This document shows positions 1,445 through 8,318 of a stretch of DNA of 10,106 nucleotides, in pieces. The notes under the pieces are model-generated. The model did not search any database, was not told where the DNA came from, and was given only the letters and a program-made list of their open reading frames with translations. The DNA is from a virus. Lineage: Duplodnaviria; Heunggongvirae; Uroviricota; Caudoviricetes. The stretch lies in the IMG/VR virus record IMGVR_UViG_2526164690_000014; one strand, written 5' to 3'. The translations under genes were made by a program, and so were the position numbers. Every line of letters starts with the position of its first letter. Position 1 is the stretch's first letter.

Positions 1445-1735
1445 TCATCTTTTAACTCCATATACCGCCAATACCCGTTTCATCGCGGCACTCTGGCGAC
1501 ACTCCTTAAAAATTAGGTTCGTGCTCATCTTTCCTTCCCGTTCTTCCTTGGTAGCAAACCGGTAATACACCGTTCGCCAGACCTTACCTTCGATAACCAG
1601 AAGACCTGCCCGTGCCATTTTAGCCGCGGCCTGATTTATGCTGGTTACTGTTGCGCCTGTTAGCGCGGCAACGTCCGGCGCACAGAAGCTATTATGCGTC
1701 CCCAGGTAATGAATAATTGCCTCTTTGCCCGTCAT
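1445..1735 (-). CDS. ren: Ren protein (96 aa)
   Basis: Translation MTGKEAIIHYLGTHNSFCAPDVAALTGATVTSINQAAAKMARAGLLVIEGKVWRTVYYRF... is near-identical to lambda Ren as recalled; ATGA overlap with the P stop. Confidence 0.9.
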   Translation of the reverse strand: MTGKEAIIHYLGTHNSFCAPDVAALTGATVTSINQAAAKMARAGLLVIEGKVWRTVYYRFATKEEREGKMSTNLIFKECRQSAAMKRVLAVYGVKR

Positions 1736-2433
1736 ACACTTGCTCCTTTCAGTCCGAACTTAGCTTTGAGTTCTGCGATCTTCGCCAGAGCCTGTGCACG
1801 ATTTAGAGGTCTACCGCCCATGACAGGAAGTTGTTTTACTGGTTCAGGGATCGCCTCACCACGGTTAATTCTCGCAGTCATATGGACAAGCTCATCTGCG
1901 GCCTTACGGCGTAATTCCGCATCAGTAAGCGCATTGGCCCGCATGTTCTGATACAGGTTGGTAACCAGCCAGTAGTGCGCGTTTGATTTCCACGGATAAG
2001 ACTCCGCATCCGGATACAGGCCTCGCTTCCTGCAATACTCGTAAACCATATCAACCAGCTCGCTGACGTTTGGCAGTCCGGCGATAACGGATGCTTCTTC
2101 CCGGCACCATGCAACAAACTGCCCGGGTGATGGCAGGAATGGTCGATTCTGCCGACGGGCTACGCGCATTCCTGCGTTAACCTGTTCCATTGTGGTGATC
2201 CCGTTTTCCCGGAAAGCCAGAACCCACTGGCGGCGGATTTCGTTCAGTTCGTTCTGGTCACGGTTAGCCAGGCTCGCCGGGAAAGTTGCCAGTAACTGGC
2301 TGAACACACCGTTGATGATCTGCGCTACCTGTTGTACCTGCGGCTTTTCGTCGTACTGTTCCGGCATGTTGTTGGCGATCCGACGCATCTGCTCACGGTC
2401 AAAGTTAACCATCTGTGCGGCGATGTTTTTCAT
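1732..2433 (-). CDS. P: Replication protein P (DnaB helicase loader, 233 aa)
   Basis: Full-length 233-aa ORF MKNIAAQMVNFDREQMRRIANNMPEQYDEKPQVQQVAQIINGVF... is near-identical to lambda P as recalled; its start overlaps the O stop. Confidence 0.95.
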   Translation of the reverse strand: MKNIAAQMVNFDREQMRRIANNMPEQYDEKPQVQQVAQIINGVFSQLLATFPASLANRDQNELNEIRRQWVLAFRENGITTMEQVNAGMRVARRQNRPFLPSPGQFVAWCREEASVIAGLPNVSELVDMVYEYCRKRGLYPDAESYPWKSNAHYWLVTNLYQNMRANALTDAELRRKAADELVHMTARINRGEAIPEPVKQLPVMGGRPLNRAQALAKIAELKAKFGLKGASV

Positions 2434-2854
2434 AAATCCACCCCGTAAATCCAGTCAGTGTTTGTCAGGTCGAGTTTTGGTTTGCTGGCTGTCACGCCTG
2501 CCTGTTGCTTGTTACGGTTGATTTCGAGCTGGGTCCACTTGTCGCGGAGTTTGGCCGGACTCAGCACGTTACCGGACCAGAAGTTGTCCTGGCAGGCCCA
2601 GCGGAAAAGCACACACATATCGCGGTGGTTACGTCCGTCACGTTCACGCATCAGGCGGATATCGTTAGCCCACCCTGCAAAATTCGGTTTTCTGGCTGAT
2701 GGTGCGATGGTCTTCACCATGTCAAACATCCACTCTGCGGCGGTCAGGTCTTCTGCTGTTCCCCACTTGCTGCCGCTCTGAATTGCAGCATCCGGTTTAA
2801 CCACAGAAAGATCGTTTTCTGGCTGGTCAGAGGATTCGCCAGAATTCTCGGACG

Positions 2855-2953
2855 AATAATCTTTTCTTTTTCTTTTGTTATAGTGTCTTTTGTGTCCCCC
2901 TGTTTTGAGGGATCTCCCTCATTTTTAGGGGAACCTCCCTCGTTTTGAGGGAT
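2855..2953. repeat. Lambda-type replication origin inside O: three iteron-like repeats plus an AT-rich region
   Basis: Minus-strand reading gives CATCCCTCAAAACGAGGGAGG, TTCCCCTAAAAATGAGGGAG and ATCCCTCAAAACAGGGGGACAC (about 2953-2896), followed by the A-rich tract ACAAAAGAAAAAGAAAAGATTATTCG. Lambda ori has four such iterons; here I count three. Confidence 0.7.
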
Positions 2954-3030: not shown

Positions 3031-3039
3031 AACTTGGCT
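3031..3039. repeat. 9-bp target site duplication (AACTTGGCT), left copy
   Basis: Identical 9-mer AACTTGGCT immediately flanks both IS10 termini (3031-3039 and 4369-4377). Confidence 0.9.
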
Positions 3040-3085
3040 CTGATGAATCCCCTAATGATTTTGGTAAAAATCATTAAGTTAAGGT

Positions 3086-3154
3086 GGATACACATCTTGT
3101 CATATGATCAAATGGTTTCGCGAAAAATCAATAATCAGACAACAAGATGTGCGA
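3086..3154 (-). ncRNA. IS10 RNA-OUT antisense RNA (approximate ends)
   Basis: Placed from established IS10 biology (pOUT transcript antisense to the transposase 5' end). In the sequence, CACATCTTGT (3091-3100) and ACAAGATGTG (3142-3151) form the expected inverted repeat spanning the transposase start codon region. Confidence 0.45.
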
Positions 3155-4355
3155 ACTCGATATTTTACACGACTCTCTTTACCAATTCTGCCCCGAATTA
3201 CACTTAAAACGACTCAACAGCTTAACGTTGGCTTGCCACGCATTACTTGACTGTAAAACTCTCACTCTTACCGAACTTGGCCGTAACCTGCCAACCAAAG
3301 CGAGAACAAAACATAACATCAAACGAATCGACCGATTGTTAGGTAATCGTCACCTCCACAAAGAGCGACTCGCTGTATACCGTTGGCATGCTAGCTTTAT
3401 CTGTTCGGGCAATACGATGCCCATTGTACTTGTTGACTGGTCTGATATTCGTGAGCAAAAACGACTTATGGTATTGCGAGCTTCAGTCGCACTACACGGT
3501 CGTTCTGTTACTCTTTATGAGAAAGCGTTCCCGCTTTCAGAGCAATGTTCAAAGAAAGCTCATGACCAATTTCTAGCCGACCTTGCGAGCATTCTACCGA
3601 GTAACACCACACCGCTCATTGTCAGTGATGCTGGCTTTAAAGTGCCATGGTATAAATCCGTTGAGAAGCTGGGTTGGTACTGGTTAAGTCGAGTAAGAGG
3701 AAAAGTACAATATGCAGACCTAGGAGCGGAAAACTGGAAACCTATCAGCAACTTACATGATATGTCATCTAGTCACTCAAAGACTTTAGGCTATAAGAGG
3801 CTGACTAAAAGCAATCCAATCTCATGCCAAATTCTATTGTATAAATCTCGCTCTAAAGGCCGAAAAAATCAGCGCTCGACACGGACTCATTGTCACCACC
3901 CGTCACCTAAAATCTACTCAGCGTCGGCAAAGGAGCCATGGGTTCTAGCAACTAACTTACCTGTTGAAATTCGAACACCCAAACAACTTGTTAATATCTA
4001 TTCGAAGCGAATGCAGATTGAAGAAACCTTCCGAGACTTGAAAAGTCCTGCCTACGGACTAGGCCTACGCCATAGCCGAACGAGCAGCTCAGAGCGTTTT
4101 GATATCATGCTGCTAATCGCCCTGATGCTTCAACTAACATGTTGGCTTGCGGGCGTTCATGCTCAGAAACAAGGTTGGGACAAGCACTTCCAGGCCAACA
4201 CAGTCAGAAATCGAAACGTACTCTCAACAGTTCGCTTAGGCATGGAAGTTTTGCGGCATTCTGGCTACACAATAACAAGGGAAGACTTACTCGTGGCTGC
4301 AACCCTACTAGCTCAAAATTTATTCACACATGGTTACGCTTTGGGGAAATTATGA
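3147..4355 (+). CDS. tnp: IS10 transposase (402 aa)
   Basis: ORF MCELDILHDSLYQFCPELHLKRLNSLTLACHALLDCKTLTLTELGRNLPTKARTKHNIKRIDRLLGNRHLHKERLAVYRWHASF... matches the Tn10/IS10 transposase as recalled, inside the IS10 inverted repeats. Confidence 0.95.
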   Translation: MCELDILHDSLYQFCPELHLKRLNSLTLACHALLDCKTLTLTELGRNLPTKARTKHNIKRIDRLLGNRHLHKERLAVYRWHASFICSGNTMPIVLVDWSDIREQKRLMVLRASVALHGRSVTLYEKAFPLSEQCSKKAHDQFLADLASILPSNTTPLIVSDAGFKVPWYKSVEKLGWYWLSRVRGKVQYADLGAENWKPISNLHDMSSSHSKTLGYKRLTKSNPISCQILLYKSRSKGRKNQRSTRTHCHHPSPKIYSASAKEPWVLATNLPVEIRTPKQLVNIYSKRMQIEETFRDLKSPAYGLGLRHSRTSSSERFDIMLLIALMLQLTCWLAGVHAQKQGWDKHFQANTVRNRNVLSTVRLGMEVLRHSGYTITREDLLVAATLLAQNLFTHGYALGKL

Positions 4356-4368
4356 GGGGATCTCTCAG

Positions 4369-4377
4369 AACTTGGCT
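4369..4377. repeat. 9-bp target site duplication (AACTTGGCT), right copy
   Basis: Same 9-mer as 3031-3039, directly abutting the IS10 inside end. Confidence 0.9.
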
Positions 4378-4640
4378 TCATTGCACCGTTTGACAGGTAA
4401 CTTTGTAATCTCGCTAAGTTGAGAATCGGTGATTCTGTCCATTGGTTTATTCCACCCATAGGTTTTACGCAGAATGGCAAGCAGCACTTTAAACTGTCGC
4501 TTGGTCAGATCTGCGCCTGAATAAGCCTCAATCAGCATATTTGATAGTCTGGCGTAACCATCATCGAGATCTGCCACATTACGCTCCTGTTCGGCAAAGT
4601 TACCTCTGCCGAAGTTGAGTATTTTTGCTGTATTTGTCAT
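4369..4640 (-). pseudogene. O: Replication initiator O, 5' portion (N-terminal 90 codons), truncated by IS10
   Basis: MTNTAKILNFGRGNFAEQERNVADLDDGYARLSNMLIEAYSGADLTKRQFKVLLAILRKTYGWNKPMDRITDSQLSEITKLPVKRCNEAK matches the lambda O N-terminus; AGGAG Shine-Dalgarno upstream. The last codon and stop of the track ORF (4365..4640) are IS10 terminal bases, not native O sequence. Confidence 0.85.
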
Positions 4641-5344: not shown

Positions 5345-5995
5345 ATGAATACACAACTGATGGGTGAGCGTATTCGCGCTCGCAGAAAAGAACTCAAGAT
5401 TAGGCAGGCTGCCCTTGGCAAGATGGTTGGCGTGTCTAATGTTGCTATTTCCCAATGGGAGCGATCTGAAACTGAGCCCAATGGCGAAAACCTATTGGCC
5501 TTAGCCAAGGCTTTGCAGTGCTCCCCTGATTACCTGTTGAAAGGAGAGGATAGTCTTTCAAACATTGCCTATCACAGCAGGCATGATCCAAGAGGTTCGT
5601 ATCCTCTAATTAGTTGGGTAAGCGCAGGATGTTGGATGGAAGCTGTAGAGCCATATCATAGGCGTGCAATAGATAACTGGTACGACACAACGGTAGATTG
5701 TTCTGAAGACTCTTTTTGGCTCGACGTTAAAGGTGATTCAATGACTGCCCCGGCAGGACTGAGTATTCCTGAAGGGATGATTATTCTCGTCGACCCAGAA
5801 GTCGAACCACGTAATGGAAAGCTGGTAGTCGCCAAACTTGAAGGAGAAAACGAGGCGACATTCAAAAAGTTAGTTATTGATGCCGGTAGAAAATTCCTGA
5901 AACCACTCAATCCACAATACCCAATGATTGAAATCAATGGGAACTGTAAAATCATTGGCGTTGTCGTTGATGCCAAGCTAGCAAACCTTCCTTAA
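5345..5995 (+). CDS. c2: Prophage repressor, P22 C2 / phage 21 cI type (216 aa)
   Basis: MNTQLMGERIRARRKELKIRQAALGKMVGVSNVAISQWERSETEPNGENLLALAKALQCSPDYLLKG... with a helix-turn-helix N-domain and LexA-like C-domain (…GDSMTAPAGLSIPEGMIILVD…KLEGENEATFKKL…). Near-identical to P22 C2 as recalled. No Shine-Dalgarno, as expected for a PRM transcript. Confidence 0.9.
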   Translation: MNTQLMGERIRARRKELKIRQAALGKMVGVSNVAISQWERSETEPNGENLLALAKALQCSPDYLLKGEDSLSNIAYHSRHDPRGSYPLISWVSAGCWMEAVEPYHRRAIDNWYDTTVDCSEDSFWLDVKGDSMTAPAGLSIPEGMIILVDPEVEPRNGKLVVAKLEGENEATFKKLVIDAGRKFLKPLNPQYPMIEINGNCKIIGVVVDAKLANLP

Positions 5996-6017
5996 GGGGC
6001 TTTCGCCCCTTTTTTAT
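5995..6017 (+). terminator. Rho-independent terminator after the repressor gene
   Basis: Stem AGGGGC/GCCCCT with loop TTTC followed by TTTTTTATTT, directly after the repressor stop codon. Confidence 0.7.
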
Positions 6018-6029
6018 TTCCCGTTAAAA

Positions 6030-6113
6030 ATCAAAGACAAACTAAATTCGCGCCCATAAAATTAAGTTTTCTTCAAAAATGCACTTGACCAAAAAATTAA
6101 GAGGTCTTAATTT
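6030..6113 (+). promoter_or_regulatory. pL promoter with OL operators
   Basis: -35 TTGACC (6085-6090), 17-bp spacer, -10 TAATTT (6108-6113). Operator-like 7-4-7 site AATTAAG-AGGT-CTTAATT (6095-6112) overlaps the promoter; weaker sites at about 6060-6077 and 6030-6047. Confidence 0.6.
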
Positions 6114-6159
6114 TAAGCCGTCAGCAGGAGGCTGGAAGCCAAACGGAACAGATTGGCAG

Positions 6160-6199
6160 GCTCTTTAACATCGACGAACTCTCAACCTAACCGTTGAGA
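6160..6199 (+). promoter_or_regulatory. nutL-like site (boxA plus boxB hairpin)
   Basis: boxA-like GCTCTTTAACA (6160-6170) followed by a 7-bp stem hairpin TCTCAAC-ctaacc-GTTGAGA (6180-6199), between pL and N. Confidence 0.6.
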
Positions 6200-6309
6200 C
6201 CAGAACTTGAGTGGTTTTGGGGATGGCGCGAATTGCAGCTGCAAGACAGCGATCGAGAAGATAAGCACCTCGACGCGTCATGCGCCAAAGCCACTTAAAG
6301 GAGACCATC

Positions 6310-6615
6310 ATGGTAACCATTGTCTGGAAAGAATCCAAAGGTACGGCAAAAAGCCGCTACAAAGCTCGCAGAGCAGAACTTATTGCCGAGCGACGCAGTA
6401 ATGAAGCACTGGCGCGAAAAATTGCGCTAAAGCTCTCTGGTTGCGTCAGAGCAGACAAAGCAGCATCACTAGGAAGCCTTTGCTGCAAGAAGAAAGAAGA
6501 AGTTGTTCGAAAAAATAGAAGTATTTATTACAAGGATTCAAACCCATTAGGAAACAAAATACATGCAGTCCAAAAAATAAAATTGTACAGTAAACTACCG
6601 TACGGTGCTTATTGA
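6310..6615 (+). CDS. N: Antitermination protein N, phage 21 type (101 aa)
   Basis: AAGGAGA Shine-Dalgarno 5 nt before the ATG at 6310. N-terminal arginine-rich motif MVTIVWKESKGTAKSRYKARRAELIAERR matches the phage 21 N RNA-binding peptide as recalled. First gene downstream of pL/nutL. Confidence 0.8.
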   Translation: MVTIVWKESKGTAKSRYKARRAELIAERRSNEALARKIALKLSGCVRADKAASLGSLCCKKKEEVVRKNRSIYYKDSNPLGNKIHAVQKIKLYSKLPYGAY

Positions 6616-6617
6616 GT

Positions 6618-6956
6618 ATGCTTATGGTGAAAAAGACTATTTATGTTAATCCTGACCGCGGACAAAACAGAAAAGTATCTGATAGAGGTCTTACATCTCG
6701 AGACAGGAGGAGAATAGCGAGATGGGAAAAGAGGATAGCATATGCATTAAAAAACGGTGTAACACCTGGATTTAATGCTATAGATGACGGTCCTGAATAT
6801 AAGATTAATGAAGACCCAATGGACAAAGTTGACAAAGCATTAGCAACACCATTTCCTCGCGATGTCGAAAAAATTGAAGATGAAAAATATGAGGATGTAA
6901 TGCACAGAGTTGTTAATCACGCTCACCAACGAAATCCAAATAAAAAATGGTCATAG
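6618..6956 (+). CDS. Hypothetical protein (112 aa; basic N-terminal half, acidic C-terminal half), function unknown
   Basis: ORF starts 3 nt after the N stop (ATG at 6618 or 6624; weak Shine-Dalgarno, possible translational coupling). AT-rich, with many AGA/AGG/ATA codons. Translation MLMVKKTIYVNPDRGQNRKVSDRGLTSRDRRRIARWEKRIAYALKNG...EDEKYEDVMHRVVNHAHQRNPNKKWS has no homolog I recognise. Followed directly by an intrinsic terminator. Confidence 0.5.
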   Translation: MLMVKKTIYVNPDRGQNRKVSDRGLTSRDRRRIARWEKRIAYALKNGVTPGFNAIDDGPEYKINEDPMDKVDKALATPFPRDVEKIEDEKYEDVMHRVVNHAHQRNPNKKWS

Positions 6957-6977
6957 CCCACTTCGGTGGGTTTTTTA
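6957..6977 (+). terminator. Rho-independent terminator
   Basis: Stem CCCAC/GTGGG with loop TTCG followed by TTTTTTATT, immediately after the stop codon at 6954-6956. Confidence 0.7.
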
Positions 6978-7089
6978 TTGGCTGAACTAACCTAATTTAT
7001 TACAGCAAGCCACGCAGTGAAATGGGTGTGACTTGTGTTGGTCGCCAGAAAATGAAATTAGGCAGCAAACCACTTATTTGAGGTGAGAT

Positions 7090-7560
7090 ATGACAAAATC
7101 ATGGAGCGTACCTTTTCCTGAATCAGAAACTGAACATGATGGAATGCCTGTTTTCTGGAGATTCCAGGCGACAGTTGAAGAAGATGGGATAAAAATATTC
7201 GCACTTCAATATATAGCTTTTCATCAGACAGAGCATTATGCATGGTTGGTTCCTGCGCATTGGATTGTTAATTTTAAACCAGCACCAAATCAGTGGTTAC
7301 AGGAATGGAAACAAAGGAGAAATAGATATGCAATTAAGAAAGTAGCAAAAAATGCAGAAAGATCTTTTGCATTCCCAACGAAGAAACTTGCTATTGAAAG
7401 TTTATTGCGCCGGAAGAAATACCATTTAATGAGAATAAAACAAGATTTGGCTGTTGTATCAACTCTTGTTGATGGGATGAAAAATATTGATACATCAACA
7501 CCAGATATTGAATATAACTTTGGACACAACCAAGAAACAGAAAATTGGGTATTTTATTAG
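7090..7560 (+). CDS. Hypothetical protein (156 aa), function unknown; stand-alone accessory gene
   Basis: Strong Shine-Dalgarno GAGGTGA 3 nt before the ATG. AT-rich with rare AGA/AGG/ATA codons. Translation MTKSWSVPFPESETEHDGMPVFWRFQATVEEDGIKIFALQYIAFHQTEHYAWLVPAHWIVNFKPAPNQWLQEWKQRRNRYAIKK... has no transmembrane segment and no motif I recognise. Bracketed by intrinsic terminators upstream (6957-6977) and downstream (7664-7691). Confidence 0.6.
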   Translation: MTKSWSVPFPESETEHDGMPVFWRFQATVEEDGIKIFALQYIAFHQTEHYAWLVPAHWIVNFKPAPNQWLQEWKQRRNRYAIKKVAKNAERSFAFPTKKLAIESLLRRKKYHLMRIKQDLAVVSTLVDGMKNIDTSTPDIEYNFGHNQETENWVFY

Positions 7561-7620
7561 TACGAGTAAGCACTGTGTATTCATTCCAACGAGTGAATAC
7601 ACGGAGCAATGTCGCTCGTA
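7561..7620 (+). promoter_or_regulatory. Extended imperfect palindrome immediately after the 7090..7560 stop codon
   Basis: TACGAG...GTGTATTCA-ttccaacgag-TGAATACAC...CTCGTA: a 9-bp perfect inner stem (7575-7583 / 7594-7602) plus a 6-bp outer stem (7561-7566 / 7615-7620). No T-run follows, so it may be a protein-binding site, RNA processing/stability element or rho-dependent signal rather than an intrinsic terminator. Confidence 0.4.
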
Positions 7621-7663
7621 ACTAAACAGGAGCCGACTTGTTCTGATTATTGGAAATCTTCTT

Positions 7664-7691
7664 TGCCCTCTAATGTGAGGGCGATTTTTTT
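7664..7691 (+). terminator. Rho-independent terminator upstream of ea10
   Basis: Stem GCCCTC/GAGGGC with loop TAATGT followed by GATTTTTTTCT. Confidence 0.65.
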
Positions 7692-7709
7692 CTGTGAGGA
7701 TATGAACAG

Positions 7710-8079
7710 ATGTCAAACATCAAAAAATACATCATTGATTACGACTGGAAAACATCAATAGAAATTGAAATCGACCATGACTTAATGACAGAGGAAAAAC
7801 TTACACCAGATTAATAATTTCTGGTCAGACTCTGAATACCGACTCAATAAACACGGCTCTGTATTAAATGCTGTATTAATCATGCTGGCGCAACATGCTC
7901 TGCTTATAGCAATTTCAAGCGACTTAAATGCATATGGTGTTGTGTGTGAGTTCGACTGGAATGATGGAAATGGTCAGGAAGGATGGCCTCCAATGGATGG
8001 TAGCGAAGGAATAAGAATTACCGATATCGATACATCAGGAATATTTGATCCAGATGATATGACTATCAAAGCCGCCTGA
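7710..8079 (+). pseudogene. ea10: Ea10-like protein (lambda ea10/ssb region), interrupted by a +1 frameshift near 7803-7805
   Basis: N-terminal 34 codons MSNIKKYIIDYDWKTSIEIEIDHDLMTEEKLTPD end at a TAA (7812-7814); the remainder ...NNFWSDSEYRLNKHGSVLNAVLIMLAQHALLIAISSDLNAYGVVCEFDWNDGNGQEGWPPMDGSEGIRITDIDTSGIFDPDDMTIKAA continues in the +1 frame. Together they give about 122 aa matching lambda Ea10 as recalled; one extra base in cttAcacc. Confidence 0.65.
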
Positions 8080-8153
8080 GCGCGGCGTTACCGCATACCA
8101 ATTACGCTTCACTCGAGGTCGTTTTTCGTTATGTAATAAATAAGGAGCACACC

Positions 8154-8318
8154 ATGCAATATGCCATTGCAGGGTGGCCTGTTGCTGGCTGCCCTTCCGA
8201 ATCTTTACTTGAACGAATTACCCGTAAATTACGTGACGGATGGAAACGCCTTATCGACATACTTAATCAGCCAGGAGTCCCGAAAAATGGATCAAACAAT
8301 TATGGCTATCCAGACTAA
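8154..8318 (+). CDS. cIII: CIII protein (FtsH/HflB inhibitor, 54 aa)
   Basis: AAGGAG Shine-Dalgarno; [54 protein letters not shown] matches lambda CIII as recalled. Below the size cut-off of the supplied ORF track. Confidence 0.85.
   Translation: MQYAIAGWPVAGCPSESLLERITRKLRDGWKRLIDILNQPGVPKNGSNNYGYPD

Follow-up and report, generated by a model that had tools for sequence, protein, structure and literature searches.

The window analyzed here very probably records the insertion of an ordinary IS10 element of the IS10-Right type into the replication gene O of a decaying lambdoid prophage, which this insertion and a deletion in the same gene would together leave grounded, and we hold this interpretation with high confidence. 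By the window we mean the entire stretch of 10,106 bp, which corresponds to the whole of draft contig AIGH01000048.1 (GCA_000249835.2) in reverse orientation. A preliminary description of this DNA had reported a complete IS10 with an intact transposase reading frame and both terminal repeats. Alignment to the reference element of R100, the open reading frame and the two ends all agreed with that report, and the interval of 3031 to 4377 that had been given for the element plus its flanking duplications proved to be exact both by re-reading and by script. The finding is real and well understood; it represents a textbook event and no new kind of element. The features that make up the insertion are the following.

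3031 to 3039, no strand: left 9-bp target-site duplication, AACTTGGCT, established by direct check
3040 to 4368, plus strand: IS10, complete, 1329 bp, IS10-Right type; outside end at 3040, inside end at 4368
3040 to 3062, no strand: outside-end terminal inverted repeat, matching the reverse complement of 4346-4368 at 17 of 23 positions
3085 to 3154, minus strand: RNA-OUT antisense RNA gene (Rfam RF00240 over the whole model, positions 1-70 of 70; 98.8 bits, gathering score 41)
3147 to 4355, plus strand: IS10 transposase, 402 aa, reading frame open, ATG at IS10 bp 108
4346 to 4368, no strand: inside-end terminal inverted repeat, with a GATC at 4359-4362 within it
4369 to 4377, no strand: right 9-bp target-site duplication, AACTTGGCT, established by direct check

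To identify the element, we used as a reference the Tn10 copy in R100, which is annotated in the order IS10, gltS-like, tetR(B), tet(B), tetC, tetD-like, IS10. The arm adjoining tetD was taken to be IS10-Right, in accordance with the published Tn10 map. The window copy is identical to this arm at 1327 of 1329 nucleotides, with two mismatches and no indels, and to IS10-Left at 1312 of 1329 nucleotides (17 differences, no indels). Both mismatches to IS10-Right, at IS10 positions 203 and 1157, are silent, and the substitution at position 1157 is private to the AIGH01000048.1 contig. Terminal repeats of about 23 bp that begin with CTGA are present, with the outside-end and the inside-end sequence each in place: the element starts with CTGATGAATCCCCTAATGATTTT and its other end reads CTGAGAGATCCCCTCATAATTTC in reverse complement, the two arms being imperfect repeats (17 of 23 positions identical). 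The transposase scored 404 bits against the NCBIfam IS4-family model NF033591, matched Pfam DDE_Tnp_1 (PF01609) as well, and carries the DDE triad (D97, D161, E292) together with the YREK residues Y285, R288 and K299. It is identical to the protein WP_001339197.1 of strain 88.0502, and the IS10-Right protein of R100 has the same accession. The RNA-OUT gene overlaps the transposase start (ATG at 3147), and its transcription begins at pOUT and runs towards the outside end; GATC sites are located at 3106-3109 (IS10 bp 67-70) and, at the inside end, at 4359-4362. Every testable hallmark of IS10 (IS4 family) was found, namely its length, its ends, the 9-bp duplication, the transposase and RNA-OUT. 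In these respects, and in its GATC sites, the window copy equals IS10-Right of Tn10, an IS4-family element that NCBI PGAP names as ISVsa5 family; it differs from IS10-Right in Tn10 in being free-standing instead of forming an arm of Tn10, and in its two silent substitutions. Judged by its sequence, the element should be functional. An indirect sign of transposition is that the sister genome, with 40 or more IS10 matches, has identical copies at other sites, each flanked by a duplication of its own. Copies that are at least 99% identical to it are present in 2823 plasmid records.

The 9-bp duplication was verified directly by script. The sequence AACTTGGCT occurs just twice in the window when both strands are considered, and the probability that a given 9-mer recurs by chance at one fixed position is 3.8e-6. 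Both copies were present on re-inspection, as the preliminary description had maintained when it reported an intact flanking direct repeat. The target agrees at 4 of the 6 specified positions with NGCTNAGCN, the IS10 hotspot consensus. It also fits NPuCNNNGPyN, the IS10 integration consensus as quoted in PMC2758499. The junction between IS10 and O reads TTCTAACTTGGCTCTGATGAATCC. A direct transposition with no later rearrangement had been deduced from the intact duplication; this deduction stands for the flanks of IS10 and falls for O beyond them, where 67 bp have been deleted.

The interrupted gene is a lambdoid O on the minus strand, which IS10 splits after nucleotide 272 (codon 91 of 312), at a point within the origin-binding N-terminal domain and upstream of the iterons. 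The pieces of O and the adjoining gene P are arranged as follows.

1732 to 2433, minus strand: replication gene P, intact, 233 aa (Pfam PF06992), its start overlapping the O stop codon
2430 to 3039, minus strand: distal O remnant comprising the iteron region, an A/T-rich region and the P-interacting C-terminal domain, as determined by alignment to intact O
2895 to 2913, 2914 to 2933 and 2935 to 2953, minus strand: the three remaining ori iterons, as determined by repeat family and alignment
4365 to 4640, minus strand: truncated O' reading frame, 91 aa, comprising O residues 1-90 followed by a Phe and a stop codon from the IS10 inside end

The 91-aa O' matches Pfam Phage_rep_O (PF04492) at profile positions 2-70 of 95, as well as TIGR01610, and the distal remnant lies in a different frame from the N-terminal part. 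Reading frame, profile match and alignment agree in placing IS10 within the N-terminal coding part of O, with the start of the gene separated from the iterons and the C-terminal domain, exactly as had been proposed. In NZ_CP077567.1, PGAP annotates the equivalents of both O pieces as pseudogenes, one of them as "frameshifted; incomplete".

For comparison with an intact gene, IS10 and one copy of the duplication were removed and the repaired O was aligned to the 939-nt, 312-aa O of O26:H11 11368. O carries a 67-bp deletion between copies of the 12-bp direct repeat atccctcaaaac; it shifts the frame and takes iterons 3-5 of 6 so that three are left, and its junction falls at the 12-bp repeat GTTTTGAGGGAT (2902-2913) or inside it. 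The preliminary description had missed this deletion and the three iterons lost with it; apart from the insertion, O and ori are thus far from intact. IS10 is one of at least two lesions in O, and its precise excision would fail to restore the gene because the 67-bp deletion and the frameshift would persist. A continuous O frame that joins the N-terminal iteron-binding domain to the C-terminal domain is absent as a consequence of IS10 and the frameshifting deletion, and the full six-iteron array of the closest intact relatives is reduced to three iterons. The iteron part of O furthermore contains three window-private 1-nt indels (at 2866, 2922 and 2984) and one substitution; these indels may be sequencing errors. 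The locus shares with the lambda-type O/P module (as in lambda, phage 21 and 933W-like Stx phages) the order cII-O-P-ren-nin, the Phage_rep_O domain, iterons of the type ATCCCTCAAAACGAGGGA inside the O coding sequence, and a P start that overlaps the O stop. Unlike this module, O in the window is split at codon 91, retains 3 of the 6 iterons and is shifted in frame.

A 124-aa C-terminal O reading frame at 2430-2804 (minus strand) is a gene of its own in 658 blocks of the protein collection, and prophages of E. coli very often have a split O. Looking up this reading frame returned hundreds of unrelated prophages with a split O (loci L012-L021 are among the matches), and at one of these loci, L016 (CP043262.1), an IS66-family element is located directly upstream of the 124-aa frame, which represents an independent IS hit in O.

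The neighborhood of the insertion is a lambdoid early region with ninE, dam, ninB, ren, P, O, cII, cro and a LexA-like cI, which continues with cIII, kil, gam, bet and exo. It is nearest to prophages of O26:H11 and O111 strains, and 63-74% of its length is common to Stx1 phages, phage 21 and 933W at 96-97% identity; the immunity region of the prophage resembles that of phage 21. The proteins encoded by cI, cro, cII, P, ren, gam and bet, like the transposase, are identical to their counterparts in 88.0502. The lambda cIII RNA thermometer is matched over its full length at 8141-8199 on the plus strand, at the start of cIII (Rfam RF01804, 88.5 bits).

Compared with 88.0502, the window differs at about 30 positions, 13 of which are single-base indels, and the substitutions fall mostly within the first 610 bases. 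Differences private to the window (at 1-1048, 7803, 8119, 8135, 8429, 9622, 9976 and 10012) break the frames of dam, ninB, DUF2528, kil and exo; ninE is altered and still forms a 90-aa reading frame. Between 4369 and 10106, 88.0502 and the AMXP01000280.1 contig agree against the window at all 7 differing sites. Since two related assemblies agree against the window, its private differences are most likely draft-assembly errors, and they are distributed as one would expect from such errors or from the collapse of repeats at the end of a contig.

The left junction was found in one of 5426 complete E. coli genomes, that of the O111:H11 strain 88.0502 (NZ_CP077567.1; bovine, South Dakota). The insertion is already public, as it is present in this record and annotated there as a pseudogene, and the host lineage is cattle-associated pathogenic E. 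coli. The 67-bp deletion was likewise found as a continuous match only in 88.0502, the other genomes listed carrying a segment that is 67 bp longer. An exact look-up placed the identical 91-aa truncated product at the very end of contig AMXP01000280.1 (GCA_000313425.1). The wider context of the prophage was taken from 88.0502 and not from the genome to which the window belongs. In 88.0502, the prophage adjoins the yfaQ and alpha-2-macroglobulin genes and carries nleA and an nleG-family effector gene, with no stx annotated; its other lesions are an ISEc22 in gpJ (J) and a stop codon within the large terminase gene. The regions with this effector cargo and these lesions (nleA, nleG, terminase, gpJ) are found at 5725-8274 and 29807-31735 of locus L004 (NZ_CP077567.1). 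A second, identical IS10 lies in the same orientation in the gene just downstream of Q, where it has its own duplication, AGCATGATA. Its sister strain 88-19539 (NZ_CP077491.1) has a single IS10, whose flanks are hybrid (left AGCATGATA, right AACTTGGCT), and the segment between the two 88.0502 copies is missing, including Q, ninG, nin, ren, P and the O remnant with ori. The IS10 copies compared were those at L007 9001-10329 (NZ_CP077491.1) and, in 88.0502, at L004 35819-37147 and L001 6036-7364. Because the hybrid flanks match the duplications of the two direct 88.0502 copies, the loss from Q to O' in 88-19539 is, judging from these flanks, the product of homologous recombination between two direct IS10 copies.

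IS10 matches were detected in 1968 of the 5426 complete E. coli genomes (36%). The 88.0502 chromosome has at least 40, compared with a median of 2 among the E. coli genomes that have any, which indicates a lineage-specific expansion of IS10 in O111:H11. One of the phage-like plasmids of 88.0502 carries IS10 too (L009 48991-50000). Strain UTAK-12 (NZ_CP168981.1; L003 11523-12851) harbors the same type of prophage with O intact and an IS10 in the ead/Ea22 region, flanked by the duplication TGCCGTGCA; this copy shows all 17 IS10-Left-type differences from the window copy and represents an independent insertion of the other Tn10 arm variant.

The draft contig that makes up the window is short (10,106 bp), the genome it comes from is likely rich in IS10, and private single-base indels in the window suggest a noisy consensus, which raises the question of whether the junctions are an assembly chimera that runs through one of the many IS10 copies in the draft. 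Against this, the two flanks adjoin each other within a single gene and carry matching 9-bp duplications, NZ_CP077567.1, an independent complete genome, shows both junctions in identical form, a separate assembly encodes precisely the 91-aa truncated product at one contig end (AMXP01000280.1), and the right junction alone is seen in a fourth assembly, NZ_CP077491.1. Since the junctions recur in independently assembled genomes, we rejected a chimera, the probability of which we regard as negligible. The same applies to the idea that the element is an arm of Tn10 or an artefact of a cloning host, for which there is hardly any chance left. This idea draws on the facts that IS10 is the insertion sequence of Tn10, that this copy is of the IS10-Right type, and that IS10 of laboratory strains with Tn10 is known to transpose into cloned DNA, with documented cloning artefacts as a result (PMC2758499). 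It is opposed by the presence of O sequence on both sides together with the target duplication, which amounts to a simple insertion, by a window without tet genes, and by the sharing of the insertion among independently assembled field isolates. Moreover, the nearest IS10 in 88.0502 is in direct orientation with phage genes in between, and IS10 matches exist in 36% of complete E. coli genomes. The Tn10 arrangement of two inverted IS10 copies around tetR/tetA(B), with the jem genes, was absent at the locus, where both flanks are O, and the window contains neither tet genes nor an inverted partner IS10. Likewise, no tet genes were found among the window reading frames or in the annotation of the matching 88.0502 region, and no Tn10 or tet genes in the first 50 kb of each of the phage-like plasmids p88_0502-1 and p88_0502-2. 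A Tn10 arm or cloning artefact was rejected on account of the simple-insertion flanks and their occurrence in several field isolates. The suggestion in the preliminary description that IS10 may point to a strain with a Tn10 history is weak, as IS10 occurs in 1968 of 5426 genomes and at least 40 times in the sister genome; Tn10 ancestry is neither needed nor shown, and IS10 in a natural isolate should not be taken to indicate laboratory Tn10 mutagenesis.

A weightier question is whether O was already dead when IS10 arrived. If the 67-bp deletion came first, IS10 would be a neutral hit in an O pseudogene and not the event that grounded the prophage, a possibility to which we assign a substantial probability that stays somewhat short of even. 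The deletion by itself shifts the O frame and removes three iterons, the related prophage has several other lesions, neutral hits are to be expected where a lineage carries 40 or more IS10 matches, and O is very often split, the 124-aa frame standing alone in 658 blocks. On the other hand, among the genomes compared, the deletion was never found without IS10, nor IS10 without the deletion. No genome with one O lesion and not the other was found among the matches listed for the 5426 complete E. coli genomes searched; neither lesion being found alone, IS10 may therefore have hit an already dead gene. A different reading, which we consider very unlikely, is that the insertion has been kept for a regulatory effect, with pOUT driving the O remnant, P, ren and nin; this would result in expression of P-ren-nin, or in transcription across ori, in the repressed lysogen. 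The intact RNA-OUT/pOUT unit is indeed on the same strand as P and directed towards the O remnant and P, no terminator-like site is present on the minus strand from 3040 to the P start, and IS10 is known to bring a promoter that is able to activate adjacent genes (PMC2922620). Yet 88-19539 has lost the whole segment, which argues against selection for keeping it. Overproduction of P is, in addition, toxic in lambda. A scan for promoter and terminator consensus sequences around the element gave nothing above the shuffled expectation. Read-through expression of P from pOUT is possible as far as the arrangement of the sequence goes.

As regards replication, lambda O depends on two domains, an N-terminal one that binds the iterons and a C-terminal one that binds P and recruits the P-DnaB complex, and the lambda iterons act in cis. 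Because O needs both domains and the iterons act in cis, we infer that a prophage with its own initiator lost and its origin crippled would have lost its replication competence; the preliminary description had expected lambda-type replication initiation to be abolished. The genome of 88.0502 contains three matches to the O/iteron segment, that is, two besides this prophage, and other lambdoid prophages in the same host that have this O type could provide the three iterons with O in trans. Complementation by co-resident prophages has been documented for defective lambdoid prophages of EHEC (PMC2669165). The prophage is best annotated as replication-defective.

Based on the present data, the probable history is that a free-standing IS10 transposed by cut-and-paste into O of a lambdoid prophage and that repair of the staggered 9-bp target cut gave rise to the AACTTGGCT duplication. 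O would thereby have been truncated at residue 90, within the origin-binding domain, and its promoter and start codon would have been uncoupled from the iterons and the C-terminal domain. A separate event of slippage or recombination between iterons would have removed the 67 bp. Insertion and iteron deletion with frameshift would together leave a prophage that has no initiator of its own and half an origin, while cI, cro, cII and P are intact. A prophage grounded in this manner would be of the kind that accumulates in EHEC/EPEC lineages, and its IS10 copies could serve as portable homology for further deletions, as probably seen in 88-19539. One may go further and envisage a burst in O111:H11 (at least 40 IS10) that dismantles effector-carrying lambdoid prophages stepwise, with hits in O and downstream of Q followed by deletion of the replication and late-regulation block that two direct IS10 copies enclose, while nleA/nleG and immunity are kept and pOUT may transcribe P-ren-nin constitutively in the state represented by the window; this extended scenario is speculative and, in our judgement, rather unlikely.

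The decay of lambdoid prophages in EHEC through insertion sequences is well documented, the pool of defective prophages of O157 Sakai being the reference case (PMC2669165). The 88.0502 prophage resembles this pool in that virulence cargo and immunity are kept despite multiple inactivating lesions, and it differs in that the agent is IS10 and in the unusually high load of the lineage (at least 40 matches against a median of 2). Our literature search found no paper on IS10 in a lambdoid O gene or on an IS10 burst in O111. The insertion is of little importance beyond annotation. It provides a clean, documented case of IS10 inactivating a phage replication gene. The locus is also a marker of the unusually IS10-rich O111:H11 lineage, and the window and the two sister genomes together offer a snapshot of three steps in prophage decay, namely insertion, iteron deletion and deletion between two IS10 copies.
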